DNA from: Mobula hypostoma
Lineage: Eukaryota
Direction: 5' to 3'
Length of the DNA stretch: 64,000 nucleotides
Assembly: GCF_963921235.1 (NCBI RefSeq)
Contig: NC_086097.1
Coordinates: 115,942,001 to 116,006,000 of the forward strand
Shown here: positions 7,535 through 43,324 of the stretch, one piece after another
Layout of the letters: every line of letters begins with the position of its first letter
Position numbering within the stretch: position 1 is the first letter of the stretch
Notes under the pieces: generated by a model
Told to the model about the DNA's origin: nothing
Databases searched by the model: none
The model's input: the letters and a program-made list of their open reading frames with translations, nothing else
Translations under genes and position numbers: made by a program

Positions 7535-8548
7535 AACATAGAGACATAGAAAATCTACCGCACAATACAGACCCTTCTGCCCACAAAGCTGTGCCGAACA
7601 TGTCCCTACCTTAGAAATTACCTAGGGTTACCCATAGCCCTCTTTTTTTCTGAGCTCCATGTACTTGTCCAGGAGTCTCTTAAAAGACCCTATCATATCT
7701 ACCTCCACCACCATCGCTGGCAGCCCATTCCACGCACTCACCACTCTCTGCGTAAAAAGATTTACCCCTGACATCTCCTCTGTGCCTACTTCTAAGCACC
7801 TTAAAACTGTGCCCTCTCGTGCTAGCCATTTCAGCCCTGGGAAAAAGCCTCTGACTACCCACATGATCCATGACTCTCATCATCTTATACCCCTCTATCA
7901 GGTCACCTCTCATCCTCTGTCACTCCAAGGAAAAAAGGCCAGGTTCACTCAACCTATTCTCATAAGGCATGCTCCCCAATCCGGGAAACATCCTTGTAAA
8001 TCTCCTCTGCATCCTTTCTATGGTTTCCACATCCTTCCTGTAGTGAGGCGACCAGAACGGAGCACAGTACTCCAAGTGGGGTCTGACCAGGCTCCTATAT
8101 AGCTGCAACATTACCTCTCGGTTCCTAAAATCACTCCCATGATTGATGAAGGCCAATGCACCATATTGCTTTCTTAACCACAGAGTCAACCTGCACAGCA
8201 ACTTTGAGTGTCCTATGGACTCGGACCCCAAGATCCCTCTGATCCTCCACACTGCCAAGAGTCTTACCATTAATACTATATTCTGTCATCATATTTGACC
8301 TACCAAAATGAACCACTTCACACTTATCTGGGTCGAACTCCATCTGCCACTTCTCAGCCCAGTTTTGCATCCTATCGATGTCCTGCTGCAACCTCTGACA
8401 GCCCTCCACACTATCCGCAACAGCTACAATCTTTGTGTTATCAGTAAATTTACTAACCCATCCCTCCACTTCTTCATCCAGGTCATTTATAAAATTCACG
8501 AAGAGCAGAAGTCCCAGAACAAATCCCTGAGGCAGACCAATGGTGACC
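7535..8548 (-). mobile_element. CR1 LINE, 5'-truncated RT and 3' end
   Basis: GLPQGFVLG..FINDLDEEVEGWVSKFTDNTK, LYRSLVRPHLEYC; catagagacatagaaaa tail. Confidence 0.92.
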
Positions 8549-9579
8549 AATAAGTTGTATTTATGACACAAGTCAAAAACAAAAAGTATATGCTACTGGT
8601 GTTTCATATGTGATGAGATCTGAGTGTGGCAAATTGTTCAGTAGTCTCTCTGGCAGAAAAGAAGTTGTTTATCACCCTAACAGTCCTTTTCCTAATGCCA
8701 CTGTTCCTCCTGTCTGATGGTAAGGGTTCAAAGAGGTTGCTGGATGGATGGCAGAGATTATTGATAATGCTAGGGCCCTGCATTTTCAGCTTTCCTGATA
8801 ACTATCTTGGATGAGTAGAACAGATTGCAATGATCTTCTCAGTTGCCCTCACAATCCTTTGTAGGGTCTTGCAGTCAGATGTCTTGTAATTTACATGCCA
8901 GATAATGATGCAACTGGTCAGGACATTCTCAGTCATCCCCATTGCCCTACCATTCATAGCTTAGGTCTTTCACTCGTTTGACTTTCCGAAATGCTTCTGC
9001 TCACAATTTTCTATACGGAGATCCATTTGCTGCTCCTTGACTCACTTCTCCAACTGATCTTGATCCCCGTATAATCTGCAGTAACCTTCCTCACTTTCAA
9101 CAATGCATCCTCATTTGGTGTCAGCTACAGACCTGCTGATCAAGTCTTGAGCAGTCTCATGCAAATCATTTCTATAAATTACAAATAATAAGGGTCCCAA
9201 AACTGGCCCTTGCAGCACGCCATTGGGCACCAACCTCTATTCTGAGAAACGAACTACAGCCACCTCCACCCACCACACACAGTCCTGTTGAAGGGTTTCA
9301 GCCTGAAGCATCGACTCTTTACTCTTTTCCATAGATGCTGCCCAGCCTGCTGAGTTCCTCCAGCATTTTGTGTGAGTTGTTTGGATTTCCAGCATCTGTA
9401 GATTTTCTCTTCTTTGTGCTACAGCCACCACCTACTGCTTTCTGCCTCTGAGACAGTTCTGAATCCACTCAGCTCGTACCATTTTCCTGATTTATCAAAT
9501 TCCAGCATCTCCAAATCTCTGTTCAGCCTCTTTCTCTCTCTCCGTTCTTCTCTCCTCCATCTGGGTCTATCTTCTCATC

Positions 9580-10989: not shown

Positions 10990-11995
10990 CACTGGATCTG
11001 TTCCCAGAACACAGCTTTCCATTCCAGGACTTCAGAAATAGCCTCCTTCTTCAAAGGGGGTTTCCCTACCCCCACTAAGATCTGCACTCTCACTATCTTC
11101 CTGCCACTTTAAAAGTGATAGAGTTCATCTTGTCCTTATCTACCCCCCATCAGTCTCTGCATCCAACACATTATCCTCCACAACCTCTGCCACCTACAAA
11201 GAGATCCTACCACGAAACACATCATTACCTCTCCTCTCCTCATCCCATGGGGAACTCTCCCTCCCAGATTCCCTTCTTCATTCATCCCTCCCCACTAATC
11301 TCCCTTCAGGCACTTATCCCTGCAAGTGGCCTAAGTGCAACACCTGCCCATTCACCACCTCCCTCACCTCCATTCTGGAACCAAAACAGTCCTTACATGT
11401 GAGGGAATGCTTCACCTGAGAAACTGCTGGGGTGATCTAGTGTGTCCAGTGCACCGCTTCGTCGAGCACCTCTGCTCCATCTACAACAAGCTGAACCTTC
11501 TGGTGGCTAAACATTTTAATTTCATTTACCATTCCCATGCTGACATGTCAATCTATGACCTCCTCTTGTGCCAAGATGAAGTCACCCTCATGGTGAATGA
11601 GCAACACCTTATATTCCATCTAGGTAGCCTCCAACCTAATGGCATGAATATTGATTTCTCCATCTGGTTAAAAAAATTCCACCCTTGCTCTATTCTCCAC
11701 ACTGACCTTTTACCTCTTCTTACCTGCCCTTTACTTTCTCCTATGGTCTACTCTCCTCTCCCAACAGATTCCTTCTTCTCCAGCCCTTGACCTTTCCCAC
11801 CCACCTGGCTTCACCTTTCACCTTCGAGCTAGCCTTCTCCCCACCCCACCACCTTTTTATTCTGGCATCTTTCTCCTTCATTCTCAGTCCTGAAGAAGGG
11901 TCTCAGTCCAAACCATCGACTGTTTATTAATTTCCATAGGTGCTGTCTGACCTGCTGACTTCCTCTAGTAGTTTGCGCGTGTTGCTTTGAAGTTT
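10990..11995 (+). mobile_element. Degenerate Penelope-like element 3' part (GIY-YIG, 3' UTR, decayed hammerhead)
   Basis: RFVEHLCS..VAKHFN..HSHADMS..EQHLIFHLGSLQPNGMNIDFS; gtcctgaagaagggtctcagtccaaaccatcgac at ~11888-11920. Confidence 0.88.
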
Positions 11996-14907: not shown

Positions 14908-16778
14908 AACATGCAGCATGCACGTGGAAGGCAAGGACTATTTAAGTAAGAGCAGGTCTTCATAACATCATATGTTTTGCTGTAAATAAAAAGATCCTGT
15001 CTGCTCCATGATGTAGGTGTAAACATCCCCAGTCTTGGTCCAAGCACAGGTACTTTGGACAAGAAAATATTGGTTACTACCTCATTAATAATAAAATAGT
15101 TACAAATTAACATTGAATTGCTCAAGTTTAATCTCTTGCAACAGTTCAAGTTTAGGTTCCTTAGCCATTTTCCTTTGCCCCCTCTCCTATTATAATCTAA
15201 ATCACAATTGCAACAAGTAATACTCCCATTTGACGTTGACCCATACAGCGTTACCGACCTCTTCATATTTTGCTCCTTGCAGCTATACCCTATTTGCACA
15301 GTTTAAAAAGTGCTGAAGAATTTCCAGTCTCCTAACGCCAACAGAAGTTAATCAAACATCATTCAATTTAAAGGCAAAGATATTATCATGATGGGTTTTG
15401 ATAGGTCCTGGATCCATTAATTAGTTCATATTTGTTTTATATAAAGTAAAAAAAAACATATTTCAAATGCATTCAGAAGATCTGTCACACAGTCCTGCTG
15501 CCTGAGCTACCACAAAGCATTGTTGATGAGAACATTATGTTATCGGCAATAAGTTAATGGCTGTAATCTATTCCCTTTCACTTTCAAGGAAGACATGATT
15601 TAAAAGGAATACACAGTTCAAAAATCTGTATTAAATCCAGAAATGCTTCCTTGGAGCACGGAAACAAAAGGACTTCTTTAGGCCTCTGACCCTGGCTAGG
15701 GACAGGATGAAGCTGATGGCAAGGGAGTGGAGCTTGTGATGGTGTCCATATTTTTAGTTGAGAAATCGGGTCAGTCATCATTGTTTCTACCAGTGCTCAA
15801 GTAGGGAAAAAAAATAAGTCTCTAAATTCAGCACAAATTCCAAGAGCCCATTTTAAAGAGATTGTTGATGTGATAACCTGCATATCACAGTAGAGTGCAG
15901 GTCATGTATACAGCTGGAGGAACACAGACTGGGTAGTTGACATAGAAACATAGAAAACCTACAGCAAAATACGGGCCCTTTGGCTCATAAAGCTGTGGCG
16001 AACATGTCCTTACCTTAGAACTACCTAGGCTTACACATAGCCTTCTGTTTTTCTAAGTTACATGTACCTATCCTGGAGTCTCTTAAAAGACCATATCGTT
16101 TCCGCCTCCATCACCACCATTGGCAGCCCATTCCATGCACTCACTACTCTCTGCGTAAAAAAACTTACCCCTGACATCTCCTCTGTACCTACCTCCAAGC
16201 ACCTTAAAACTATGCCCTCTCATGCTAGCCATTTCAGCCCTGGGAAAAAGCCTCTGACTATCCACACGATCAAAGCCCCTCATCATCTTATGTACCTCTA
16301 TTAGGTCACTTCTCATCCTTGGTTGCTCCAAGGAGAAAAGGCCAAGTTCACTCAATCTATTCTCATAAGGCATGCTCCCCAATCCAGGCAACAACCTTGT
16401 AAATCTGCTCTGCACCCGTTCTATAGTTTCCACGTCCTTCCTGTAGTGAAGCGACCAGAATAGAGCACAGTACTCCAAGAGGGGTCTGCCAAGTTCCTAT
16501 ATAGCTGCAACATTACCTCGTGGCTCCTAAATTCAATCCCATAGTTGATGAAGGCCAATGCACCGTATGCCTTCTTAACTACAGAGTAAACCTGTGCAGC
16601 AGCTTTGAGTATCCTATGGACTCGGACCCCAAGATCCCTCTTAATCTCCACACTGCCGAGAGTCTTTGTCATAGTCCGGTCCGTGAAGTCCATATTCCAG
16701 TTCACGGTCCGGTCCATCGACCCTTGCTCCAGCTTTTCCTGTCTACCCTGTTTCTGTCTTGTTGAGTTCTAATTGAGG

Positions 16779-16812
16779 CAGCTGATGCTCGTTGGGGCTG
16801 GCTGCATAAATA
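16779..16812 (+). promoter_or_regulatory. Putative LTR promoter (E-box CAGCTG + TATA-like CATAAATA)
   Basis: cagctg 16779-16784 and cataaata 16805-16812, ~140 bp inside the TG terminus. Confidence 0.4.
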
Positions 16813-17206
16813 CCTTCAGAGACCAGAGCATTGCTGCTGGATTGTTCTTGTCCTTACTCCTTGTTTCCCTTCCTCTGCCTTCTGTTTCCTCGCCTGAAGC
16901 CCTGCCATGTTTTGCCGGTAACTCTCGCCTCGTCTCGCCTGCAGTCTTGTCCTGGAGCCACCCTGTACCTAGCTCCCTTCCTGTCCCTTGCCTCCGCCCA
17001 GGTAAGCCAGGCCGTCTTGCCGTTACCTGTGGTTGGTTCTGTCTCTTCCTGTCCCTTGCCTCCGCCCAGGTAAGCCAGGCCGTCTTGCCATTACCTGGGG
17101 TTGGTTCTGACCCTTCCTGTCCCTTGACTCTGTTGGGTGGTGATCTGTGCCCTGCCCAGGAGTACCGTGCCCTGCCCAGGAGATCCGTGCCCTACCCAGG
17201 AGGAGC

Positions 17207-20200
17207 CTGCCAAGCCTTGCCTCAAGTCTCCAGCCTCCAGCCAAGCCTTGCCTCAAGTCTCCAGCCTCCAGCCAAGCCTTGCCTCAAGTCTCAAGCCTCA
17301 CCTCGCCTCAAGTCTCCAGCCTCACCTCGCCTCAAGTCTCCAGCCTCCAGCCTCGCCTCGCCTCATCTCCAGCCTCCAGCGTCCAGCCTCGCCTCGTCTC
17401 CAGCCTCCAATCTCACCTCGTCTCAATCCTCCAGCCTCCAGCCTCACCTCAAGTCTCCAGCCTCCAGCCTCACCTCAAGTCTCCAGCCTCTCCTCAAGTC
17501 TCCAACCTCCAGCCTCGCCTCAAGTCTCAAGTCTCCAGCCTCGCCTCACCTCAAGTCTCCAGCCTCGCCTCGCCTCAAGTCTTCAGCCTCGCTTTGCCTC
17601 AAGTCTCCAGCCTCCAGCCTCCAGCCTCGCCTCGTCTCCAGCCTCCAGCCTCGCCTCGTCTCCAGCCGCCAGCCTCGCCTCGTCTCCAGACTCCAACCTC
17701 GCCTCAAGTCTCAAGCCTCCAGCCTCCAGCCTCACCTCCTCTCCAGCCTCCAGCCTCGCCTCAAGTCTCCAGCCTCACCTCAAGTCTCCAGCCTCCAGCC
17801 TTGCCTCGCTTCGTCTCCAGCCTCCAGCCTCCAACCTCGCCTCGTCTCCAGCCTCCAGCCTCGCCTCAAGTCTCCAGCCTCCAGCCTCGACTCAAGTCTC
17901 CAGCCTCCAGCCTCGCCTTGCCTCAAGTCTCCAGCCTCCAGCCTCCAGCCTCGCCTCAACTCCAGCCTCCAACCTCGCCTCAAGTCTCCAGCCTCACCTC
18001 AAGTCTCCAGCCTCCAACGTTGCCTCGCTTCGTCTCCAGCCTCCAGCCTCGCCTCAAGTCTCCAGCCTCCAGCCTCGCCTTGCCTCAAGTCTCCAGCCTC
18101 CAGCCTCGCCTCGCCTCATCTCCAGCCTCCAGCCTTGCCTCGCTTCATCTCCAGCCTCCAGCCTCCAGCCTCGCCTCGTCTCCAGCCTCCAACCTCGCCT
18201 CAAGTCTCCAGCCTCCAGCCTCGCCTCAAGTCTCCATCCTCCAGCCTCACCTTACCTCAAGGCTCCAGCCTCCAGCCTCGCCTTGCCTCGTTTCCAGCCT
18301 CCAGCCTCGCCTCGTCTCCAGCCTCGAGCCTTGCCTCGCTTCGTCTCCAGCCTCCAGCCTCCAGCCTCGCCTCGTCTCCATCCTCCAACCTCGCCTCAAG
18401 TCTCCAGCCTCCAGCCTCGCCTCGCCTCGTCTCCAGCCTCCAGCCTTGCCTCGCTTTGTCTCCAGCCTCCAGCCTCGCCTCGTCTCCAGCCTCCAACCTC
18501 ACCTCAAGTCTCCAGCCTCCAGCCTTGCCTCGTGTCGTCTCCAGCCTCCAGCCTTGCCTCGCTTCGTCTCCAGCCTCCAGCCTCACCTCGTCTCCAGCCT
18601 CCAGCCTCGCCTCAAGTCTCCAGCCTCCAGCCTCGCCTTGCCTCAAGTCTCCAGCCTCCAGCCTCGCCTTGCCTCAAGTCTCCAGCCTCCAGCCTCGCCT
18701 CGCCTCGTCTCCAGCCTCCAGCCTTGCCTCGCTTTGTCTCCAGCCTCCAGCCTCCAGCCTCCAGCCTTGCCTCGTCTCCAGCCTCCAACCTCGCCTCAAG
18801 TCTCCAGCCTCCAGCCTCGCCTCAAGTCTCCAGCTTCCAGCCTTGTCTCAAGTCTCCAGTATCCAGTTTCACCTCAAGTCTCCAGCCTCCAGCCTCACCT
18901 CACCTCAAGTCTCCAGCCTCCAGCCTTGCCTCGCTTCGTCTCCAGCCTCCAGCCTCGCCTCAAGTCTCCAGCTTCCAGCCTTGTCTCAAGTCTCCAGCCT
19001 CCAGTCTCCCCTCAAGTCTCCAGCCTCCAGCCTCACCTCAAATCTCCAGCCTCCAGTCGTGCCTCAAGTCTCAAGTCTCCAGCCTCCAGCCTCACCTTGC
19101 CTCAAGTCTCAAGTCTCCAGCCTCGCCTCAAGTCTCCAGCCTCGCCTCATCTCCAGCCTCCAACCTCGCCTCAAGTCTCCAGCCTCCAGACTCCAGCCTC
19201 GCCTCAAGTCTGCAGCCTCCAGACTCCAGCCTCGCCTCAAGTCTCCAGTCTCCAGCCTCCAGCCTCAGCTTGCCTCAAGTCTCCAGCCTCCAGCCTCGCC
19301 TTGCCACAAGTCTCCAGCCTCCAGCCTTGCCTCGCTTCGTCTCCAGCCTCCAGCCTCCAGCCTCGCCTCGTCTCCAGCCTCGCCTCAAGTCTCCAGCCTC
19401 CAGCCTCGCCTTGCCACAAGTCTCCAGCCTCCAGCCTTGCCTCGCTTTGTCTCCAGCCTCCAGCCTCGCCTCGTCTCCAGCCTCCAACCTCACCTCAAGT
19501 CTCCAGCCTCCAGCCTTGCCTCGTGTCGTCTCCAGCCTCCAGCCTTGCCTCGCTTCGTCTCCAGCCTCCAGCCTCACCTCGTCTCCAGCCTCCAGCCTCG
19601 CCTCAAGTCTCCAGCCTCCAGCCTCGCCTTGCCTCAAGTCTCCAGCCTCCAGCCTCGCCTTGCCTCAAGTCTCCAGCCTCCAGCCTCGCCTCGCCTCGTC
19701 TCCAGCCTCCAGCCTTGCCTCGCTTTGTCTCCAGCCTCCAGCCTCCAGCCTCCAGCCTTGCCTCGTCTCCAGCCTCCAACCTCGCCTCAAGTCTCCAGCC
19801 TCCAGCCTCGCCTCAAGTCTCCAGCTTCCAGCCTTGTCTCAAGTCTCCAGTATCCAGTTTCACCTCAAGTCTCCAGCCTCCAGCCTCACCTCACCTCAAG
19901 TCTCCAGCCTCCAGCCTTGCCTCGCTTCGTCTCCAGCCTCCAGCCTCGCCTCAAGTCTCCAGCTTCCAGCCTTGTCTCAAGTCTCCAGCCTCCAGTCTCC
20001 CCTCAAGTCTCCAGCCTCCAGCCTCACCTCAAATCTCCAGCCTCCAGTCGTGCCTCAAGTCTCAAGTCTCCAGCCTCCAGCCTCACCTTGCCTCAAGTCT
20101 CAAGTCTCCAGCCTCGCCTCAAGTCTCCAGCCTCGCCTCATCTCCAGCCTCCAACCTCGCCTCAAGTCTCCAGCCTCCAGACTCCAGCCTCGCCTCAAGT

Positions 20201-21585
20201 CTGCAGCCTCCAGACTCCAGCCTCGCCTCAAGTCTCCAGTCTCCAGCCTCCAGCCTCAGCTTGCCTCAAGTCTCCAGCCTCCAGCCTCGCCTTGCCACAA
20301 GTCTCCAGCCTCCAGCCTTGCCTCGCTTCGTCTCCAGCCTCCAGCCTCCAGCCTCGCCTCGTCTCCAGCCTCGCCTCAAGTCTCCAGCCTCCAGCCTCGC
20401 CTCAAGTCTCCATCCTCCAGCCTCGCCTTTCCTCAAGTCTCCAGCCTCCAGCCTCGCCTCACCTCGTCTCCAGCCTCCAACCTCGCCTCAAGTCTCCAGC
20501 CTCCAGCCACGCCTCAAGTCTCCAGCCTCCAGCCACGCCTCAAGTCTCCAGCCTCCAGCCTCGCCTCAAGTCTCCAGCCTCCAGCCTCGCCTTGCCTCAA
20601 GTCTCCAGCCTCCAGCCTCACCTCGCCTCGTCTCCAGCCTCCAGCCTTGCCTCGCTTCATCTCCATCCTCCAGCCTCCAGCCTCGCCTCGTCTCCAGCCT
20701 CCAACCTCGCCTCAAGTCTCCAGCCTCCAGCCTCGCCTCGCCTCGTCTCCAGCCTCCAGCCTTGCCTCGCTTCGTCTCCAGCCTCCAGCCTCCAGCCTCG
20801 CCTCGTCTCCAGCCTCCAACCTCGCCTCAAGTCTCCAGCCTCCAGCCTCGCCTCAAGTCTCCAGCTTCCAGCCTTGTCTCAAGTCTCCAGCCTCCAGCCT
20901 CACCTCGCCTCAAGTCTCCAGCCTCCAGCCTTGCCTTGCTTCGTCTCCAGCCTCCAACCTCGCCTCGTCTCCAGCCTCCAGCCTCGCCTCAAGTCTCCAG
21001 CTTCCAGCCTTGTCTCAAGTCTCCAGCCTCCAGTCTCCCTTCAAGTCTCCAGCCTCCAGCCTCGCCTCAAATCTCCAGCCTCCAGCCTCCAGCCGCGCCT
21101 CAAGTCTCCAGCCTCACCTCAAGTCTCCAGCCTCGCCTCATCTCCAGCCTCCAACCTCGCCTCAAGTCTCCAGCCTCCAGACTCCAGCCTCGCCACAAGT
21201 CTGCAGCCTCCAGACTCCAGCCTCGCCTCAAGTCTGCAGCCTCCAGCCTCTTGCCTCGCCTCAAGTCTGCAACCTCCAGCCTCTTGCCTCGCCTCAAGTC
21301 TCCAGTCTCCAGCCTCGCCTTGCCACAAGTCTCCAGCCTCCAGCCTCGCCTTGCCTCAAGTCTCCAGCCTCCAGCCTCACCTCACCTCAAGTCTCCTGCC
21401 TCCAGCCTCCAGCCTCGCCTCGCCTCGTCTCAAGTCTCCAGCCTCCAGTCTTGCCTCGCCCCAAGCCTGAAGACTCCAGCCTCTAGCCTCTAGCCTCTTG
21501 CCAAGTCAAGCCAAGTCTCTAGCCTCTAGCTTCTAGCCTGAAGACTCCAGCCTCGTCCTGCCTGCCAGCCAAGCCTCGTCCTTGC
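17207..21585 (+). repeat. Complex C-rich minisatellite of CCAGCCT / CGCCT / CAAGTCT modules with a 991-bp higher-order duplication
   Basis: Directly visible; rare variants recur exactly 991 bp apart (cgtgtcg 18531/19522; ccttgtctcaagtctccagtatccagttt 18841/19832; aatctcc 19041/20032). Confidence 0.97.
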
Positions 21586-23671
21586 CTAGTTCTGGGGTCC
21601 GAGCCAGAGGCAAGACCCAGGTACTGGGTCCTTGTCCAGTTTCTGGCTCGGAGTCCAAGCCCGGGCTCCTAGCTCTTTTGTTCAGTCTGGTTCCAGGTTC
21701 CTGGTTTTCCTGTCAATGTCCTTTCCATCGCCCTGTTTCCTAGTCCTGTCCCTAGTACTTCAGTGCCTGTGTCTTGCACTTGGGTCCGTTCCCAGCCCCC
21801 CTCCTTATGACAGTCTTACCACTAATGCTATATTCTCCCATCATATTTGACCTACCAAAATGAACCACCTCACACTTACCTGGGTTGAACTCCATCTGCC
21901 AGTTCTCAGCACAGTTTTTCATCCTATCAATGTCCCGCTGTAACACCTGACAGCCCTCCACACTATCCACAACACCGCCAACCTTTGTGTCATCAGCAAA
22001 TTTACTAACCCATCCCTCCACTTCCTCATCCAGGTCATTTATAAACATCACAAAGAGTAGGTGTCCCAGAGCAGATCCCTGAGGCACACCACTGGTCACC
22101 GATCTCCATGCAGAATATGACCCACCTCCAACCACTCTTTGCCTTCTGTGGGCAAGCCAGTTCTGCATCCACAAAGCAATGACCCTTTGGATCCCATGCC
22201 TCCTTACTTTCTTAAAAAGCCTGGCATGGGCTACCTTATCAAATACCTTGCTGAAATCCATATACACTACATCTACTGCTCTACCTTCATCAATGTGTTT
22301 AGTCAATCCTCAAAAAATTCAGTCAGGCTCGTAAGGCACAATCTGCCTTTGACAAAGCCATGCTGACTATTCCTAATCATATTATGCCTCTCCAAATGTT
22401 CATAAATCCTGCCTCTCAGGATCTTCTCCATCAACTTACCGACTACTGAAGTAAGACTCACTGGTCTGTAATTTCCTGGGCTATCCCTAATCCCTTTCTT
22501 GAATAAGGGAACAACAACCGCAACCCTCCAATCCTCGGGAACATCTCCCGTCCTCATTGATGATACAAAGATCATCGCCAGAGGCTCAGCAATCTCCTCC
22601 CTCTCTTCCCACAGTAGCTTGGGGTACATCACGTCCGGTCCCGGTGGCTTATCCAACTTGATGCTTTCCTTAATATCTACATGCTCAAGCTTTTCAGTCC
22701 ACTGAAAGTCATCCCTACAATCACCAAGATCATTTTCTGTAGTGAATACTGAAGAAAAGTATTCATTAAGTACCTCTGCTCTCTCCTCCTGTTCCACGCT
22801 TTTCCATTGTCACACTTGATTGGTCCTCAAGTCCTATCCTCTTGCTCTTCACATACTTGTGGAATGCCTTGGCGTTTTTCTTAATCCTGTCCACCAAGGC
22901 CTTCTCATGGCCCCTTCTGGCTCTCCTAATTTCATTTTTAAACTCCTTCCTGCTAGCCTTATAATCTTCTAGATCTCTGTCATTACCTTGTTTCTTGAAC
23001 TTTCGTAAGCTCTTATATTCTTCTTGACTAGACTTACAACAGCTTTTGTACATCACGCTTCCTGTACCCTACCATCCTTTCCCTGTCTCATTGGAACGTA
23101 TCTATGCAGAACACCACACATGTATCCTCTGAATATTTGCCACATTTCTTCCGTACATTTCCCTGAGAACATCTGTTTCCAGTTTATGCTTCCAAGTTCC
23201 TTCCTGATAGCCTCATATTTCCCCTTACTCCAATAAAATGTTTCCGTAACTTGTCTATTCCCATATCTCTCCAATGTTATGGTAAAGGAGATAGAATCAC
23301 TATCTCCCAAATACTCTCCCACTGAGAGATCTGACACATGAGCAGGTTCACTTCGCAATACCAGATCAAGTACAATCTCTCCTCTTGTAGGCTTAACTAC
23401 ACATTGTGTCAAGAAACCTTCCTGAACACACCTAACAAACTCCACATCATCTAAACCCTTCACTCTAGGGAGATGCTAATCAATATTTGGGAAATTAAAA
23501 TCTCCCACCATAACAACCCTGTTATTACTATACCTTTTCAGTGTTACTATTGATGGTGTCTATTTTGTAGAGTTCGATTCCATGGTATTTCCATCAATGT
23601 AGGTAAGCCTCTCAGCCTTGCTCATTGTGTTAGTCACGTACTGGAAGATTGGCAACTCCTGTACCGATTTA

Positions 23672-31230: not shown

Positions 31231-32557
31231 GTATAATGACTGCACAGAGACAGAGACCACACTTCTGATGGACACCAAGCGCCAGACCAAACAAGAGCAA
31301 ACAAGAAGCACAACCTGCCTGATATTCTGAATGAAAATATTTCCTTTGGATCACTACAACCCTCAACAGGCAACATCCAATTTTCTATCTCCTATATCAC
31401 ATTACCGTAAAATGTAAACAATGTCACTTTTATCATTGTGAAGTATCACATGAGAACACGTCTTTCGTCATCATCCAGGAATGGAGTGCAGAGAGGGAGT
31501 CAAAGTCAAGTCAAAGTAAAATTATTACGAAGTTCGTATATGTCACCACATATTATCTTAAGATTCATTTTCTTGCAGGAAAATAAATGCAATAGAATGT
31601 TTGAAAATCTGTGCAAACAACCAAATACAAAAAAAGAATTGTGCAAATAGTAGTCAAAAATAAGAACACGAGCTCTATAGCTCTGTAAAGTAAGCCCATA
31701 GGTGATGGATTCAATTCAGATTTGATTTGAGTGAAGTGATCCACGCTGAATTTGCAGGATACTGTTACTCTCTACTGTGCATCTAGAGAAGCTTGCAAAA
31801 GTTTTAGATTTCATGCCAAATCACATCTGGAGATGGTAATGATGAACCGAGAGGTCCCTTTTACATCACAATCTACCTTGTCATGCTCTTCACCGGATTT
31901 GCCAGCTCTGTAAATGCAGCAGCTCTGTAGCTGCTACACTTTGTTCTGGATTCTGTTATCTCTTTGCCTTATACTACCTCAATTTGCTGATATGATGAAA
32001 TGTGTTTCTCCCTGTATCTCAATACATGTGTCAAAAATAAACCGATTTAAATTTATCACTTCAGTGGCTACACAATGGGTGAATTAGGTTGACAGGGTGC
32101 ATGTCAGAGGGCAAGCTGCAGTGTGGCACCAGGTGTAGAGTGCACCCCCAGGTGTGGGGTAGAGAAACAGAGGCTGGGTAGAGACAACACTTCTGTAACG
32201 TACCTGGGGGTTTGGATAGGGATTGTAATTTGGGCTCTGTCAACACATGACTGATGCGCATATAGTCCCAAGTTCATGTGTGGGGTTTCAGGCCTGCCTG
32301 ATTGAGGCAGAAGATAACAAGGAGCATTGAAATCCATCTTCTGCTTCTCCGAGCAGATTGTCAATACCAATTGTCAGAAGGTACAGGAGCCTTAGGTCTT
32401 ACAACACCAGTTACAGGGACTGTTATTACACTACAACCATCAGGTTCCTGAACCAACATGGATCACCTCAGTGCTAAACAGAATCAAAATTAATATCAAC
32501 ATACATCAAAGTTGCTGGTGAACGCAGCAGGCCAAGCAGCATCTATAGGAAGAGGCG

Positions 32558-32599
32558 CAGTCGACGTTTCAGGCCGAGACCCTTCGTCAGGACTAACTG
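32558..32599 (-). ncRNA. Minimal hammerhead ribozyme motif in the Penelope 3' pLTR
   Basis: Reverse complement is cagttagtcCTGACGAagggtctcggcctGAAAcgtcgactg, identical to 5529-5570. Confidence 0.8.
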
Positions 32600-32888
32600 A
32601 AGGAAGAGTGAGTAAGGGATTTGAAAGCTGGAGGGGGAGGGGGAGATGCAAAATGGTAGGAGAAGACAGGAGGGGGAGGGATAGAGCCGAGAGCTGGACA
32701 GGTGATAGGCAAAAGGGGATACGAGAGGATCATGGGACAGGAGGCCTAGGGAGAAAGACGGGGGGGGGGGTGACCCAGAGGATGGGCAAGAGGTATATTC
32801 AGAGGGACAGAGGGAGAAAAAGGAGAGTGAGAGAAAGAATGTGTGCATAAAAATGAGTAACAGCTGGGGTACGAGGGGGAGGTGGGGC

Positions 32889-35811
32889 CTAGCGGAAGTT
32901 AGAGAAGTCAATGTTCATGCCATCAGGTTGGAGGCTACCCAGACGGAATATAAGGTGTTGTTCCTCCAACCTGAGTGTGGCTTCATCTTTACAGTAGAGG
33001 AGGCCGTGGATAGACATGTCAGAATGGGAATGGGATGTGGAATTAAAATGTGTGGCCACTGGAAGATCCTGCTTTCTCTGGCGGACAGAGTGTAGATGTT
33101 CAGCAAAGCGGTCTCCCAGTCTGCGTCGGGTCTCACCAATATATAAAAGGCCACATCGGGAGCACCGGACGCAGTATATCACCCCAGTCGACTCACAGGT
33201 GAAGTGATGCCTCACCTGGAAGGACTGTTTGGGGCCCTGAATGGTGGTAAGGGAGGAAGTGTAAGGGCATGTGTAGCACTTGTTCCGCTTACACGGATAA
33301 GTGCCAGGAGGGAGATCAGTGGGGAGGGATGGGGGGGACGAATGGACAAGGGAGTTGTGTAGGGAGCGATCCCTGCGGAATGCAGAGAGAGGGGGGGAGG
33401 GAAAGATGTGCTTAGTGGTGGGATCCCGTTGGAGGTGGCGGAAGTTACGGAGAATAATATGTTGGACCCGGAGGCTGGTGGGGTGGTAGGTGAGGACCAG
33501 GGGAACCCTATTCCTAGTGGGGTGGTGGGAGGATGGAGTGAGAGCAGATGTACGTGAAATGGAGGAGATGCGTTTAAGAGCAGAGTTGATAGTGGAGGAA
33601 GGGAAGCCCCTTTCTTTAAAAAATGAAGACATCTCCCTCGTCCTAGAATGAAAAGCCTCATCCTGAGAGCGGATGCGGCGGAGACGGAGGAATTGCGAGA
33701 AGGGGATGGCGTTTTTGCAAGAGACAGGGTGAGAAGAGGAATAGTCCAGATAGCTGTGAGAGTCAGTAGGCTTATAGTAGATATCAGTGGATAAGCTGTC
33801 TCCAGAGACAGAGACAGAAAGATCTAGAAAGGGGAGGGAGGTGTCGGAAATAGACTAAGTAAACTTGAGGGCAGGGTGAAAGTTGGAGGCAAAGTTAATA
33901 AAGTCAACGAGTTCTGCATGCGTGCAGGAAGCAGCGCCAATGCAGTCGTCGATATAGCGAAGGAAAAGTGGGGGACAGATACCAGAATAGGCACGGAACA
34001 TAGATTGTTCCACAAACCCAACAATAAGGCAGGCATAGCTAGGACCCATACGGGTGCCCATAGCTACACCTTTAGTTTGGAGGAAATGGGAGGAGCAAAA
34101 GGAGAAATTATTAAGAGTAAGGACTAATTCCGCTAGACGGAGCAGAGTGGTGGTAGAGGGGAACTGATTAGGTCTGGAATCCAAAAAGAAGCGTAGAGCT
34201 TTGAGACCTTCCTGATGGGGGATGGAAGTATATAAGGACTGGACATCCATGGTGAAAATAAAGCGGTGGGGGCCAGGGAACTTAAAATCATCGAAAAGTT
34301 TAAGAGCGTGAGAAGTGTCATGAACATAGGTCGGAAGGGATTGAACAAGGGGTGATAAAACAGTGTCGAGGTATGCAGAAACGAGTTCGGTGGGGCAGGA
34401 GCAAGCTGAGACAATAGGTCGGCCAGGACAGGCAGGTTTGTGGATCTTGGGTAGGAGGTAGAAACGGGAAGTGCGGGGTGTCGGAACTATAAGGTTGGTA
34501 GCAGTGGATGGGAGATCCCCTGAGCGGATAAAGTCGTTGATAGTGTGGGAGACAATGGCCTGGTGCTCCTTAGTGGGGTCACGATCGAGGGGTAAATAAG
34601 AGGAGGTATCCGCGAGTTGTCGCTGTGCCTCGGCAAGGTAGAGGTCAGTACGCCAGACTACAACAGCACCCCCTTTATCAGCGGGTTTAATAATAAGGTT
34701 AGGATTAGTGCGGAGGGAGTGGGGAGCAGAGCGTTCCGAAGGAGTGAGGTTGGAATGGGGACAAGGTGCGGTAAAGTCGAGACGGTTGATGTCCCGTCGG
34801 CAGTTGGCAATAAAGAGATCCAGAGCAGGCAGAAGACCAGAGCGGGGTGTCCATGAAGAAGAGGAGGGTTGAAGACGGGAGAAGGGGTCATCGGTGGGGG
34901 TGGAAGAGTCCTTGCCAAAGAAGTAGGCTCGGAGACGGAGACGGCGGAAGAAAAGTTCCGCATCGTGGCGAACACGGAACTCGCTGAGTTGTGGGCGAAG
35001 GGGGACAAACGTGAGGCCCTTACTGAGAACAGAGCGCTCTGCCTCCGACAGTTGAAGGTCGGAGGGGATGATAAAGACCCGGCACGGATGAGAGCTGGGA
35101 TCAGAGGGGGGAGGGGGGAGGCTGGGGGTGTCAGTGGAGAGGGGAGGGTTGGGGTGAGAGGAAGATGGAGCCTCTGAGGGCCCAGGAGTTGACGGTGGGA
35201 TCTGAGGAAGACGGGGCTGCGGAGTGGTGGTTGGGGAAGGGGAGACGGGAGTCACAACAGCAGCACATAAAGACCCGGCCTGGAGTTCAAGGCTGGAGTC
35301 GCAGTTGGTGGTTGCGTAATCGCTGTGAATGTGTCCATGGTCGTTGCTGTAGTCCGGGTTTTGAATATGCCCTGAGGTGTTGGAGCCGGTGAGATCAATG
35401 GCAGTGGCCGCAATCTGAAGTTCATGCCTGCTAGCGTCGGGGCCGGCAGGCTCTGGAGTCCGTAGATGTAAGATCTTACGATCTTTGCCTAACATGACAA
35501 AGTCAAAAAAACGGCGATTGCAGGCGTGGATCCGACGGAGGATGAAATAGCGGGTAGGACCATTACAGACGGCGAAGAAAGTGTCCCGAAGGTGTGGAAG
35601 GGTCTGGGATAGGGACACCAAGTACCTCCTCATGGCGGAGAGCATCGCCTTCAGAGCTTGACGGGAGAAGAGGCGAGAGGCAGAGTCAATAAAATGTGAG
35701 TACCTGGGATCCTCAGAAGGTCCAAATTGAGAGGCTTGGAAACGAATCCTAAAGCCAACTGGAGTAAGTTGGCGACGGAGGCTCGTTCCAAGAAAGGATA
35801 CATGGCTGTGA
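32889..35811 (-). pseudogene. Penelope-like RT/GIY-YIG polyprotein, ~970 codons in one frame with one nonsense codon (TAG at 33855-33857) and no native start
   Basis: KPADKGG, FYLLPKIHK, GRPIVS, MDVQSLYT, GVAMGTRMGPSYA, RYIDD; FT*SISDTSLPFLD continues in frame into CKRNKCYTC and VIYCVRCSRCGLLYIGET..RFAEH..GMN. Confidence 0.93.
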
Positions 35812-35819
35812 TAATATCT

Positions 35820-36905
35820 TTGGCACATGTTACGAAATTTGTTAACTATATGGCAGCAGTACAATGAAATACATGATAAATAAACATAGAGAAAAAAGCT
35901 GAGTTTCATCAAGTATATCTATGTCTATTAAATAGTTAAGTTAAAGTAACAGAAATAAAAATGTAGTGAGGTAGTGTTCATGGATTCCATGTCTATTTAG
36001 AAATTGGATGGCAGAGGGGAAGAAGCTGTTTCTGAATTGCTGAGTTTGCTCCTTCAGGCTTCTGTACCACTTTTCCGACAGTAGCAGTATGAAGAGAGCA
36101 TGTCCTTCCTGAAAGATGTATGCCATCTTTCTAAGGTACAGCTCCTTGAAGATGTCCTGGATACTATGGAAGCTGCTATCCATGATAGAGCTGACTAATT
36201 TTACAAGTTTCTGCAACTTATTTTGATCTTGTGCAGTAGCTGCCCCATTCCAGATGGTGATGCACCCAGTCAGAATGCTCTTTACAGTACATTTGTTGAA
36301 ATTTTCGAGTGATTTAGTTGACAAACCATATCTCCTCAACCTTCTAATGAAATATAGCTGCTGTCTTGCCTTCTTTATGGCTGCATCAATATGTTGGGTC
36401 CAGGTAGGATCCCCAATGATCTTGACACCCAGGAACTTGAATTGCTCACTCTCTCCACTTCTGATCCCTCCATGAAGATTGGTTTGTGTTCCTTCATCTT
36501 ACTGTTCCTGAAGTTCACAATCAGCTCTTTGGTCTTGCTGATGTTGTTGTTGTACCACCACTCAAATTAACTGGTATATCTCTGTCCTGTACACCATCTC
36601 ATCTCCATCTGAGACTCTGCCAACAATGGTTGTATCATCAGCAAATTTATAGATGATATTTGAGCTATGCCTAGTCATACAGACATAGGTGTACAGACAG
36701 TAGAGCAGTGGGCTAAGCACATATCTCTTTGGCATGCCAGTGTTGATTGTCAGTGAGGTGGAGGTGTTATTTCCAATCTGCACAGATTGTGGTCTTCGAG
36801 TCAGGAAGTCAAGGATCCAGTCACAGAGGGAGGTACAGATGCCAACAAAGGCCTAGGTTCTGTAGCTTTTTGATCAGGACTGTAGGAATAATGGTGTTAA
36901 ATGCA
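35820..36905 (-). mobile_element. Rex1/Babar-like LINE fragment (RT C-terminus and tail)
   Basis: TGMPKRYVLSPLLYCLYT..KFADDTTIVG; SILTGCITIWNG..NSFFPSAI. Confidence 0.85.
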
Positions 36906-37290
36906 GAATTCAGAAGAATAAGGAGTGACCTCATTGAAACTTATCAAAAGGTGAACGGTCCTGATAGAGTGGATGTGGAGTATATGTTTCCCACGGTGGG
37001 AGAGTCTAATACCAGAGGACACAGCCTCAGAATAGTGGGCTGTCCTTTTAGAACATAGATGAAGAGGAATTTCTTTAGCCAAAGTGATGAGTTGGTGATT
37101 TTTTTTTGCCAGAGGCAGTGGTGGAGGCCAAGTCTTTATGTATATTTAAGGTAGAGGCTGCTAGATTCTCGATTGGTTAGGGTATGAAGGGACACAAAGG
37201 GAAGCAGGAGGTTGGGTCAGAAAGGAAAATTGGATCATCCATGATGAAATGATGGAACAGACTCGATGGGCCAAATGGCTTAGTTCTGCT
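36906..37290 (+). mobile_element. CR1 3' fragment
   Basis: EFRRIRSDLIETY..SNTRGHSLRI. Confidence 0.82.
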
Positions 37291-37299
37291 ACGATGTCG

Positions 37300-38108
37300 G
37301 AGTTTAAGAGGAGGCAATAGCGCCTAATGGCGACTCCTTTGCTTGCATCTTTGGAAACAGGTCTACTTCCATATTTAATATCTCTATCTTTTCCTTTCAT
37401 AGTTTTTTGAAGACCCTGACCTGGAGTTACTCATTGACTATGGTTCTTTGCGGGAGTGGGACCTACTCTCGGGGTTTCGTGACTGGCCGTTATTCAGCAC
37501 GCTAAGAGTGCAGCCTAAGAGCTCTGCTCGCCTTCAGAGGGCTGGGACCTCATGGCTCTGGAGAGGGGGGGATCGGAGGTCGGTATCCTGGCAAGATATC
37601 GGTGTGTCGTGGGAGATGGAAGATCTAAAACTGTGTGCCCAGAGATCCGAGATCTTCGGGCACAGAGCTCGGAAAAAGCAACACAACCGACTTTTGATAT
37701 TGTAAACCAGCGAGTTGTTTGTTATGTTTCCCCTCTGGCTGTGAAATGGAGATACTTCTTTCTCCCTTATTAGGGAGAGAGAGAGCCTGTGGTATGTGGA
37801 ATACCGGGTGAACAAGCTATCTTTGGAGTACTGCAAGCTTGTGTCTTTGCTGTTGCTCTGTTCAAGCTTGAGTGCTCGGTGATGGGTGCTGAAGCTTTTT
37901 TTTTACTGGTGGAGGGAAGGGGGATCATTGCTTGCTACCACTTATGTGCAGGAGAGAGGGGAGCTGGAGGGGGGACTTCAGGGTTCTAACTGTCATTCAA
38001 TCTTTGGGGGCACTCCTATGTTTTCAAGGGTGGTTACAAAAAAACGCATTTCAAGATGTATATTGTCAGAGAAAAGTATACATTTAATGTACCTTTGAAA
38101 CCTTTGAT
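37300..38108 (+). mobile_element. Non-coding interspersed repeat ending in a Rex1-like tail
   Basis: GC-rich non-coding body ending aatgtacctttgaaacctttga. Confidence 0.45.
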
Positions 38109-38192
38109 GATCTTTATATATTTTATGGTATTTCTTTATTTTGTTGTTAATTCTGCAAGAAAAATTATCTCAAGGTAGCATATGGTGACATA

Positions 38193-40099: not shown

Positions 40100-41640
40100 A
40101 AAATAAGTTCATCAATTTCAGCAGCTTCACCTCCAACTTCCACCTTGCCCTTAAATTCATTTCGTCCATTTCTGAAACTTCTCTCCCCTTTCTCGATCTT
40201 GCCTCCATCCCCGGAGAAAGGTTGTCTACCGATATCTATCACAAACCTACTGAATCCTGTGGCTACCTTGACTATACCTCTTCCCACCCTGACTCCTGTA
40301 AACATGCCATTTTCTTTTCTGAATTATTTCATCTCCACTGCATCTGTTCCCAAGATGAGGCTTTCCTTTCCAGGTCATCAGAGATGTCCTCCTCCTTCAA
40401 AGATTGCGGCTTCCTATCCACCGCCATTGATAATGGCGTCACCCACATTTTCTCTATTTCCTGAACATCCACTCTCATCACATTTTATTTTTAAGGTGAA
40501 TTACTTTATTCTTTCTTACTTCTCTTCTAATATCTGTATATCTGTGCACTTTTTTATGCTACTGTGACAATGTAATTTTCTTTGGGATCAATAAGGAATC
40601 TATATGTCTATTCAGTTAACCTCCTGCTGCCTTAACAGGGATAGAGTTCCTCTTGTCCTCACCTACAACCCTATGAACATTTACATCCCATTCTCCACAA
40701 CTTCTGCCACATTCAACGGTATCCTATCACCAAACACATCTTTACCGCCCGCCCCGCCGCCATTCACTGCTTTTGCAGGGATCACTCCTTCCATGATTCC
40801 CTTGTGCATTCACCTCTCCCCACTAATTGTCCTTCAGGGGGCATTTGTCCCTACAAGTGATAGAGATGCTAGACCGGCCCATTCACCTTCTCCTCACCTC
40901 CATTCAGAGCCCCAAACAGTCCTTCCAGATGAGACAACACTTCACCTGTGAATCTGTTGGGGTTGTCTATTAGATATGGTGCTCCCGATGCAGCCTCCTC
41001 TCCATTGGTGAGACCTGAAGTAGATTGGGGGATCCACTTTATCGAACACATTCACTTCTTCTGCTAAAGGCTAGAATTCCAGGTGGCAACCATTTTAATG
41101 CCGTTCCTCATTCCCATTCTGACATGTAGGTCCATGGCTTCCTCTGTTGCCATTGATGAAGCCACTCTCAGGTTGCAGAAGCAACACCTCATATTCCATA
41201 TGGGTAGCCTCCAATCTAATGTTATGAACATTGATTTGTCCAACTTCCTGTAATTTTACTCTTCCCCCATCCCTTTTGTTCAATTCCCCTCTCTGGCCTC
41301 CCCTCTTACCACTTCTTTTTTTCTCACCTGCCTATCACCTAGCCATGGTGTGCCTCCTCCATCCCTTTCTAACATTATCCACTCTCTTCTCCTGTCAGAT
41401 TCCTGCTTCTTCAGCCCTTTATCTTTTCCACCTTACACCTCCCAGCTTCTCACTTCATTTCCCCTCCCCACCCATCTAACCTCACCTATAATCTTTTTGC
41501 TTGTACTCCTTTGCCTGCTCCCACTTTCTTATTCTGGCTTCTTTCCCCTTCCTTTCTGGTCTTGATGAAGGTTCCTGGTCCAAAAAGTCAACTGTTTATT
41601 AAATTTACATAGATGCTCCCTGACCTGCTGTGTTCCTTCA
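40100..41640 (+). mobile_element. Degenerate Penelope-like 3' half
   Basis: STDIYHKPTESCGYLDYTSSHP, RVPLVLTY, GIY-YIG remnant, decayed hammerhead at 41558-41594. Confidence 0.88.
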
Positions 41641-42347
41641 GCGTTTAGTACCATCATCCCCTCAAAGCTAATCAATAATCTTCAAGACCTTGGCCCCAAT
41701 ACCTCTTTGTGCAATTGGATGTTATATTTCTTCACTTGCAGACCCCAGTCAGTTCGGATTAGCAACAACATTTCCTCCACAATCTCCATCAGCACAGGTG
41801 CACCACAAGGCTGTGTGCTTAGCCCCCTGCTCTACTCGTTTTACACTAATGACTGTGAAGCTAAACACAGCTCCAATGCCAATATTCAAGTCTTCTGACG
41901 ATACCACTGCTGTAGGCCAAATCAAAGGTGGTGATGAATGAGCACACAGGAGGGAGATTGAAAATCTGGCTGAGTGGTGCCACAACAGCAACCTCTTCCT
42001 CAGTCTCAGTAAGACCAAAGAGCAGAGTATTGACTTCAGGAGGAGGAAACCATAGCTCCATTATTGCCAGTCCTCAGTGGAGGATCAGAGGTGGAGGAGA
42101 TCAGTAATTTTAAACTCCTCAATGTTATTATTTCAGAGGACCTGCCCTGGGCCCAGCACATAATTGCAATTATAAAGAAAGCACGGCAGCATCCCTACAT
42201 CCTTTAGAGCTTGCAAAGTATTGGCATGACATCTGAAACGGCCAGTGAGTGAGTGGGCCAGTGAAGGAGTGGAGCTTTGAGGCTTTGACTCGAGAGGCTT
42301 CGACGAGAAGAGGCGGAGGACGAGCTTGTTCCCAGTTAGTTTTTACA

Positions 42348-43289
42348 ATGTCTTCTGAGACGGTGATGTGCCTCTCATGTGAGATGTGGCAGTCTTGGGG
42401 GAGCACCCCTCTCCCGCGGAGTCACATCTGCCAGAAGTGCGTACGGCTGGGCAATCTGGAAGACCGTGTAAGGAATCTGGAGCAGCAGCTGGATGACCTT
42501 CGACTCATAAGGGAGAATGAGGCAGTCATAGATGAGAGCTACCGGGAGGTAGTCACACCTAGGCTGTCGGAAGCAGGTCGTTGGGTGACAGTCAGAGGGG
42601 GGAAAGCGAAGGTGAGCAGACAGGTAGTGCAGAGCACCCCTGTAGCCATTCCCCTAAATAGTAAGTTTACTGTCCTGGAAACTGTTGGCGGGGATGACCG
42701 ACCAGGTGTGAGCCACGGTGGCAGGGCCTCTGGCACTGAATCTGACCCTGTGGTGCAGAAGGGTGGGATGGAGAAGAGGAGAGCTGTCGTCATTGGGGAC
42801 TCTATAGTCAGGGGAGCAAACAGGAGATTTTGTGGACGTGAGAAGGACACCCGCATGGTTTGTTGCCTCCCGGGTGCCAGGGTCCGGGATGTCTCTGACC
42901 GGGTGCACGACATCCTGGTACAAGAGGGAAAGCAACCAAAAGTTGTGATACATGTTGGGACCAACGACATAGGCAGGAAGAAGGATGAGGTCCTGAAGTG
43001 TGAGTTTAGGGAACTAGGCAGAAGGCTGAAGAACAGGACCTCAAGGGTGGCGTTCTCAGGATTGCTACCAGTGCTACGTGATAGTGATGCTAAGAATTGG
43101 AGGAGATCGCAGTTGAATGCATGGCTGAGGAGTTGGTGTAGGGAGCAGGGTTTTAGATTTTTAGATCATTGGGATCCCTTCTGAGGAAGGTGGGATCTGT
43201 ACAGATTGGATGGATTGCACCTGAACTCGAGGGGGAGCAATATCCTTGCAGGTAGGTTTGATAGCATGGTTCGGGAGGGTTTAAACTAA
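42348..43289 (+). pseudogene. CR1 ORF1p: Cys knuckle, coiled coil and SGNH esterase domain; one premature stop at 43182-43184
   Basis: CLSC..CQKC, LEDRVRNLEQQLDDL, GDSIV, HVGTND, and DGLHL after the stop in the same frame. Confidence 0.9.
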
Positions 43290-43324
43290 TTTGCAAGGGG
43301 GATGGGACCCAGAGTGATAGAGCA

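Follow-up and report, generated by a model that had tools for sequence, protein, structure and literature searches.

A probable Ty3/gypsy solo LTR in a cartilaginous fish carries an unusually large minisatellite that likely grew in place

Introduction

That retroelements seed tandem arrays is well established, and the concept is not new. Minisatellites borne by LTRs are already known from mouse MaLR elements and from plant LTRs, and the present case is unusually large. The mouse loci Ms6-hm and Hm-2 are simple repeats of 4-5 nt whose instability in the germline has been measured, and expanded simple tandem repeats of the Ms6-hm type are built from a homogeneous unit of 4-6 nt. As for fish elements, the available part of PMC3601003 describes Sushi LTRs in which a clear AATAAA lies near the 3′ end. 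According to the accessible portion of bioRxiv 10.64898/2026.10.27.761883, the LTR elements of batoids are mainly Gypsy and DIRS1, while retroviral LTRs make up 0.15-0.63% of batoid genomes. The locus described here, from Mobula hypostoma, is probably best explained as a Sushi/rGmr1-type Ty3/gypsy solo LTR in a cartilaginous fish whose internal array grew in place.

Results

The insert occupies 16667-21812 (5,146 bp) of the window, which is the whole 64,000-nt stretch that was analyzed and contains no N, and it interrupts a CR1 LINE (Table 1). To the right of the insert, this CR1 matches copies at 8266-8551 (88%) and 45534-43971 (70%) and is recognized by Pfam RVT_1 with E values of 1.4e-18 and 1e-06. 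Its protein is nearest to that of shark (67-72%, vs 38-59% for birds, among the 120 matches listed of 983). The earlier note had described a clean CR1 insert with TGTCATA…TATGACA ends and a perfect GTCTT duplication, and all of this was recovered: the 3′ terminus TATGACA ends at base 21812, and the inverted match between the two ends is exactly 7 bp and breaks beyond. By themselves, TG..CA ends whose inverted repeat spans 7 bp, flanked by a duplication of 4-6 bp, are not significant, as 22 such pairs exist in the window and 6-15 pairs were found per shuffle in 20 shuffled sequences. When the element was removed in silico, however, the joined flanks aligned over the junction to CR1 at 8158-8366 (187/209, 89%) and to that at 45666-45464 (151/204, 74%). 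The insertion is thus proven by the presence of the empty site in two CR1 paralogues in the window. The layout also agrees with the earlier estimate of about 0.55 kb of 5′ sequence, 4.3 kb of array and 0.25 kb of 3′ sequence, the measured lengths being ~540 bp, ~4.35 kb and ~250 bp. Neither unique flank has a second copy within the 64-kb window.

Table 1. Features of the insert and of its CR1 host (positions in the window).
Feature	Position	Strand	Basis or remark
Host CR1 LINE, 3′ portion, left of insert	15940-16661	-	87% to CR1 at 7536-8265
Target-site duplication (TSD), left copy GTCTT	16662-16666	+	single copy at the paralogue's empty site
5′ short inverted repeat / att site TGTCATA; family 5′ boundary	16667-16673	+	contig starts; Sushi TGTYANR fit
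U3-like unique part (putative orientation and function), with CAGCTG at 16779 and TATA-like CATAAATA at 16805	16667-16973	+	
Small tandem repeats in the LTR, 68 bp x2.3, then 20 bp x3	16974-17205	+	
Compound minisatellite, ~4.35 kb, degenerate at both edges	about 17206-21560	+	C-rich on + strand
Exact higher-order tandem duplication, period 991 bp	18429-20402	+	18429-19411 = 19420-20402
Older block copy of 18740-19251	20778-21308	+	30 mismatches/488 aligned (6.1%), 10 gap blocks
3′ unique part, R/U5-like, with long stem-loop at ~21592-21660; ends TATGACA	21561-21812	+	
TSD, right copy GTCTT	21813-21817	+	
Host CR1 ORF2 continued, reverse-transcriptase fragments, broken frames	21818-23400	-	Pfam RVT_1

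What had been called a TATA box amounts only to the non-canonical CATAAATA. In run X11, which is only guessed to be RNA, depth is similar on both sides of this motif, although contigs cannot show a start, and no RNA sequencing run containing the element sequence is on record. The 3′ part has inverted arms at 21593-21608 and 21642-21657, and the predicted RNA fold of 21560-21812 gave z = -2.5, with 2 of 200 shuffles equally stable. No AATAAA, ATTAAA or AGTAAA occurs in 16667-21812; a poly(A) signal may have decayed in the present copy.

The array is composed of units of the form (CCAGCCT)n (CGCCT)m followed by CAAGTCT or CGTCT, of which 146 were parsed, falling into 65 types with a mean length of 28.8 bp. 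The segment 17230-21437 resolves without gaps into four related 5/7-nt modules (312 + 201 + 102 + 61). The array shows CpG decay, transitions having affected 97 of 524 CpG sites, vs 115 changes of any kind at 3,684 other sites. Longest exact partners have a median length of 50-84 bp in most central bins and of 20-43 bp in the outer ones (17406-17805 and 21206-21560); the gradient toward the edges is uneven because two central bins are low (32 bp) and the first bin reaches 52 bp. Most likely, the array is functionless cargo rather than a gene or a selected structure.

Within the array, 18429-19411 and 19420-20402 are identical over 983 bp (0 mismatches, upper 95% bound 0.3%), a feature absent from the earlier note. 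The duplication represents either a very recent unequal exchange or an assembly artefact. The latter would leave the element and an array of ~3.3 kb real and attribute only the 991-bp doubling to a false duplication by the assembler, thereby modifying rather than replacing the preferred explanation. We regard it as possible though doubtful: the 983-bp exact run stands alone, all others in the array being at most 91 bp, and the older block copies diverge by ~5-6%, whereas the breakpoints lie inside ordinary units, as expected from unequal exchange, in a window devoid of N. An artefact comprising the whole array is contradicted by the remaining sequence, which is too heterogeneous, and by the presence of its units in independent runs.

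The 5′ part of the insert belongs to a family that is dispersed in many copies and whose 5′ boundary is fixed. Three of the four sequencing runs examined for this boundary gave contigs, and the numbers starting exactly at 16667 were 189 in X1 and 208 in X2, which are DNA runs from two organisms, and 19 in X11, with unrelated letters upstream of this position (agreement 0.33-0.4), a line of evidence for the insertion that does not depend on the empty site. The fourth, the raw-read run X21 from organism F (~6% read), yielded 1 partial read on the element and 0 on the CR1 flank. The U3-like part was present in runs of organisms A-D, and its summed depth was 1e5-3e5 in most bins of X1 and X2. The runs compared come from other organisms or individuals, the best word share being 0.57. 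In the consensus upstream of 16667, where agreement is near-random (0.33), the last three letters are the same in X1 and X2, a weak hint that a minority of copies could be preceded by a PPT. The small repeats vary in copy number among family members, as contig joints connect 16998 to 17069 (skipping 70), 17109 to 16974, and 17162 to 17211, 17239 or 17254. Pattern scans of metagenome contigs, viral contigs and prokaryote genomes gave no matches, and there was no Rfam match; 75 viral matches of one 15-mer were attributed to chance, the best blastn alignments being only 25-27 bp. A literature search recovered no published description of the LTR family, which may nonetheless already have an entry in the Repbase or Dfam library.

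Array-type units, including variant ones, occur in the same runs as the family 5′ part; in X1, depth is 7-8e5 at 17230-17279 vs ~2.2e5 across the LTR body. The tandem repeat is therefore a family feature, and contigs join 17162 to the array start, indicating that the family disperses a repeat seed. To this extent, the proposal that an LTR family seeds and spreads a satellite holds. Its strong form, in which multi-kb arrays are themselves spread, has against it the exact duplication, which makes up ~1 kb of the 4.3 kb and could be an assembly artefact, and disagrees with the 227, 99 and 76 array letters per LTR body in the relatives, where a simulation from the present copy predicts ~1,500-2,300; these figures derive from summed contig depth, not copy number, and are rough lower bounds. 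Because depth counts may saturate for very abundant words, typical arrays could be longer. This rough depth estimate suggests that relatives carry ~7-30-fold less array, and the present copy has therefore probably expanded in place.

The same data bear on the reading that the insert belongs to a young subfamily with multi-kb LTRs, in which an array of ~3.3 kb was reverse-transcribed and the 991-bp doubling arose from the out-of-register LTR-LTR recombination that made the solo LTR. Such a history would explain a perfect kb-scale duplication (0/983) in one step and accords with the perfect TSD, with the two-fold difference or so in array load between X1 and X2, and with the runs compared, none of which is near-identical to the source, so that a species-specific subfamily would be compatible with them. 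We nevertheless judge it unlikely, given that organisms A and B fall ~7-30-fold below the array load predicted from the present copy and that this copy looks decayed, with CpG-type changes accounting for 9 of the 22 differences examined between it and the letters that prevail in the relatives (chosen from 40 listed, with 84 more outside these). Generalized, this reading would propose, improbably, an elasmobranch Gypsy lineage whose modular minisatellite survives reverse transcription at multi-kb length and is lengthened by out-of-register recombination at each solo-LTR formation. If that were true, hundreds to thousands of insertions would be independent, datable and length-variable minisatellite loci, constituting a natural replicated experiment on tandem-array growth and an unrecognized contributor to the genome size of sharks and rays.

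That the insert is a solo LTR is well supported, though not proven. Its 5′ end agrees with the Sushi (TGTYANR) and rGmr1 (TGTNANR) motifs of PMC3601003 Table 3 at 7/7 positions each, and its 3′ end with those of Sushi (CNTNACA) at 6/7 and rGmr1 (CGTNACA) at 5/7. Without the array, the element measures ~790 bp, vs averages of 572 and 695 bp for the training sets in the accessible part of that study. A 5-bp TSD and TGT..ACA ends are not exclusive to Sushi and would also suit an LTR from a different superfamily, whether BEL/Pao or class III ERV-like, or the terminal repeat of a non-autonomous element of the LARD/TRIM type; the class III motif is only TGT/ACA in the portion of Table 3 available. 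Such an identity seems quite unlikely because the motif of the 7-bp ends fits Sushi/rGmr1 but none of the rows for Mag, CsRN1, Gamma or HML, and because retroviral LTRs are a small share of batoid genomes. The TGT..ACA ends and the 5-bp TSD, the absence of a poly(A) signal and a lone unit for which no partner LTR was seen would likewise be explained by a DDE DNA transposon that is non-autonomous and Ginger-like, or by a MITE with a satellite inside it. MITEs of the latter kind are recorded in the accessible part of PMC9659126 Table 1. The terminal inverted repeat is, however, only 7 bp long, the ends are otherwise unrelated, and both the asymmetric organization and the end motif agree with LTR motifs published for fish, which renders such an origin very unlikely.

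Finally, a 4.7-kb open frame beginning at ATG 16785 (~1,560 codons) almost certainly does not encode a genuine repeat protein rich in Ser/Pro/Leu. Each of the three + frames stays open throughout the array, but the modules simply lack stop triplets on the + strand (0 stops vs 143 on the - strand), most unit lengths are not divisible by three, and no homologue was found among 1.84 billion representatives or, as weak evidence, among 8,000 scored candidates restricted to proteins of 351-2000 aa, so that the coding interpretation was rejected. The locus is an annotation trap in which three open frames of >1,400 codons arise purely through base composition.

Discussion

The history of the locus under the preferred solo-LTR explanation can be considered as follows. 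The element inserted into an older CR1 through a 5-bp staggered cut, presumably made by an integrase, and its internal region would then have been lost through LTR-LTR recombination. Contigs of the family indicate that its LTRs natively carry, downstream of the TATA-like motif, a tract of 7-nt/5-nt modules that probably spans a few hundred bp. Judging from the anatomy of the array, the tract of the present copy likely grew in the chromosome: slippage may have altered the module count inside units, out-of-register exchange or conversion may have doubled blocks of 0.5-1 kb, and CpG deamination may have created variant modules that were later recopied. The exact 991-bp doubling would be the latest growth event, unless it is an assembly error. 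The value of the locus is as an intact vertebrate example in which the two LTR ends, the TSD and the empty site all survive. Related genomes each hold at least ~200 sibling insertions, which would make array growth measurable across copies of known starting state.

Compared with the Sushi/rGmr1 Ty3/gypsy (Metaviridae) LTRs of fish, as characterized in the available portion of PMC3601003, the element has 7-bp inverted ends, a 3′ end one letter off CNTNACA, an array-free length of the same order and an AT-rich, TATA-like stretch in its 5′ part. It differs from them in lacking AATAAA near its 3′ end and in measuring 5.1 kb rather than ~0.6-0.7 kb, and its placement with these clades, made from the LTR, is tentative. 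Mobile elements with a family-wide internal tandem tract, such as Xenopus miDNA4 and Drosophila Tetris, appear in the accessible part of PMC9659126 Table 1, but these are MITEs or foldback elements with long terminal inverted repeats, which are absent here. The mouse loci Ms6-hm and Hm-2, listed in the same part of that table, resemble the present case in that an array expanded locally within one copy of a dispersed LTR. In contrast to them, this array consists of compound 5/7-nt modules with kb-scale higher-order copies, and not of a homogeneous 4-6 nt unit, and it resides in a probable Gypsy LTR. The 3′UTR repeats of Ogre elements (available part of PMC7004042), as well as Sobo, St3, CRM1TR and fish MALREP (accessible part of PMC9659126 Table 1), offer a parallel in which short arrays present in many copies act as seeds, of which a few expand. 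Unlike those retrotransposon-derived satellites, however, the array described here lies inside an LTR, still enclosed between the two LTR ends and the TSD.

Results

The solo-LTR-like element is 5,146 bp long (16667-21812), begins with TGTCATA, ends with TATGACA and was inserted into a CR1, with the target-site duplication GTCTT at 16662-16666 and 21813-21817. The inverted match of its two ends breaks after 7 bp, and such a signature is weak by itself because the 64-kb window contains 22 TG..CA pairs that combine 7 bp of inverted repeat with duplicated flanks of 4-6 bp, versus 6-15 in each of 20 shuffles. The real proof of insertion is the empty site in CR1 paralogues: with the insert removed, the flanks align through the junction to CR1 sequences at 8158-8366 (187/209 identical) and 45666-45464 (151/204 identical). 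Only this element and the candidate at 31541, among seven candidates tested, gave a junction-spanning alignment. The earlier note's description of an insert of about 5.1 kb in a CR1, with these ends and a perfect duplication, was accurate.

The array shows hierarchical duplication accompanied by CpG decay. Positions 17230-21437 parse gap-free into four related modules, namely CCAGCCT-type (312), CGCCT-type (201), CAAGTCT-type (102) and CGTCT-type (61), and the units average 28.8 bp, with 65 types among 146. Transitions affect 97 of 524 CpG positions, versus changes of any kind at 115 of 3,684 other positions, and the decayed modules TGCCT (39) and CACCT (30) recur so often that they were probably copied again within the array. 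Homogeneity tends to be higher in the middle than toward the edges: the median longest exact partner measures 50-84 bp in most bins of the centre, apart from two at 32 bp, and 20-43 bp in the outer ones, apart from 52 bp in the first bin of all. The array also contains an older copy of a 0.5-kb block, at 6% mismatch, and 18429-19411 is identical over 983 bp to 19420-20402 (0 differences), the longest other exact run being no more than 91 bp. Ahead of the main array, 16974-17205 holds tandem repeats of 68 bp (x2.3) and 20 bp (x3), whose copy number differs among family members in contigs mapped on 16580-17300; together with the main array they make the stretch downstream of the TATA-like motif repeat-prone throughout.

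The element belongs to a dispersed family. Its 5' 564 bp was found in part in 20 of 24 listed runs from 9 studies, and the share of its words was 0.49-0.57 in organisms A and B and 0.24-0.30 in C and D, other organisms whose runs contain family sequence, with none near 1. Four runs were mapped onto 16580-17300, giving 14,989 contigs for X1 and 11,400 for X2 (both DNA), 709 for X11 (guessed RNA) and 1 raw read for X21, counts that take in the CR1 flank as well. Contigs starting exactly at 16667 numbered 189, 208 and 19 in X1, X2 and X11, which bears out, for the 5' part, the expectation of multi-copy flanks. Because their letters upstream of 16667 are unrelated (agreement 0.33-0.4, median length 181-255) while their start is identical, they are many independent insertions with a common 5' boundary. 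The biggest contig class in these mappings is 90-95% alike to this copy. Nine of 22 differences examined against relatives' contigs, picked from 40 listed rows with 84 further rows outside the comparison, are of CpG-decay type in this copy, which suggests an aged, methylated insertion, species differences being confounded with decay.

The family also bears the repeat tract. Array-type units are present in organisms A and B, relatives' contigs loop back inside units, carry variant units and join 17162 straight to the array start, and X1 depth reaches 7-8e5 at 17230-17279 versus ~2.2e5 across the LTR body.

Other elements of the window are collected in the table. The Penelope-like frames are long but interrupted. 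The CR1-type LINE has an esterase-like ORF1 (E 1.1e-11), an endonuclease (E 1.4e-18) and an ORF2 broken by stops. The stretch bounded by inverted repeats is probably no single element but a short dispersed repeat present as two opposed copies; its joined flanks align in part to 39805-39565, with just ~27 bp left of the junction, and another copy of the repeat lies at 58797-58876. Among the 120 listed of 983 hits to the host CR1 protein, sharks are the best-identity named vertebrate relatives (Scyliorhinus 72%, Stegostoma 69%, Chiloscyllium and Hemiscyllium 67%), birds show 38-59%, one ray protein 59%, and a few matches at 60-70% bear either no name or that of a bacterium. By these identities the window most likely comes from a cartilaginous fish. 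Reverse transcriptases P0054, P0066 and P0069, of CR1 type, 65-69% identical to the host CR1 and filed as Klebsiella, Proteus and Carnobacterium, are probably vertebrate contamination of bacterial assemblies.

Other transposon-related features, with positions relative to the window
Feature	Position	Strand	Content
Host CR1	adjoining insert	-	RVT_1 fragments directly right of insert
Penelope-like element	32889-35918	-	RVT_1 (E 6.7e-05), then GIY-YIG (E 2.6e-04), both scores below Pfam cut-offs
Fragments related to Penelope-like element	~11080-11660, 40130-41248		
CR1-type LINE, near full-length	42249-46165	+	ORF1 GDSL/SGNH esterase-like, endonuclease, RT
Stretch bounded by inverted repeats	31541-38190		~38-bp imperfect inverted repeat ends and TATA duplication; 6.6 kb, includes Penelope element

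Discussion

We consider it fairly probable that a Gypsy element was inserted by integrase, that a solo LTR would then have formed, and that the array would afterwards have grown in place by slippage and out-of-register exchange. The exact 983-bp duplication either arose very recently or is an artefact of assembly; the latter, which we hold to be possible though doubtful, is compatible with such in-place growth, and the array minus this duplication is still ~3.3 kb. The main rival, which seems distinctly improbable, is that the copy represents a young subfamily whose LTRs carry multi-kb arrays and that the exact doubling would have come from recombination between LTRs out of register. On array size in the family, a simulation from this copy led us to expect 37-55% of array letters on the reference stretch, or ~1,500-2,300 per LTR, whereas 227, 99 and 76 were observed in X1, X2 and X11, which suggests that arrays typically measure a few hundred bp. 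The estimate is rough and a lower bound, as summed contig depth does not equal copy number and the depth of abundant words may be capped. The proposal in the earlier note that the family seeds and spreads the satellite is thus backed by the units in organisms A and B and tempered by these low letter counts. The array as a gene was rejected: stop triplets are missing from the modules on the plus strand (0 versus 143 on the minus strand), which leaves all three plus-strand frames open for 1,450-1,565 codons, and two protein searches returned no homologues of an array-encoded protein.

As for the type of LTR, the accessible part of PMC3601003 gives integrase motifs for two fish Ty3/gypsy groups, Sushi (TGTYANR..CNTNACA; mean training length 572 bp) and rGmr1 (TGTNANR..CGTNACA; 695 bp). 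The 5' end of the element agrees with both at 7/7 positions and its 3' end at 6/7 (Sushi) and 5/7 (rGmr1), its length without the array is ~790 bp, and its ends do not fit the Mag, CsRN1, Gamma and HML motif rows in that part of the source. A clear AATAAA, described there for Sushi, was looked for in the element and not found. The proposed TATA box is reduced to the sole TATA-like word in the element, CATAAATA at 16805, 26 bp downstream of CAGCTG. The missing AATAAA and the TATA-like word count against the assignment, and the element is labeled a probable Gypsy-type solo LTR and filed in no clade. Gypsy/DIRS1 elements are the prevailing kind of LTR element in batoids, according to the accessible part of bioRxiv 10.64898/2026.10.27.761883. 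The 3' unique part is predicted to fold into a long stem-loop (z -2.5; 2 of 200 shuffles as stable). A 35-nt inverted match (74%) between 21592-21626, at the start of this part, and 21761-21795, just before the LTR end, would be a longer-range alternative pairing to that local stem-loop.

The literature covered, which took in few subscription papers and neither supplements nor Repbase and Dfam, yielded neither an account of the element's family nor a description of a multi-kb compound array within an elasmobranch LTR. The element with its array is a real feature and offers a useful model of array growth, though no surprise for a transposon specialist, as LTR-derived tandem repeats in general are already documented. 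The mouse repeats Ms6-hm and Hm-2, which the earlier note correctly placed in MaLR LTRs, appear in the accessible part of PMC9659126 (Table 1) with potato Sobo and St3, maize CRM repeats and fish MALREP as tandem repeats in or from LTRs, and short tandem repeats in the 3'UTRs of Ogre elements expanded into satellites, as described in the part of PMC7004042 available.
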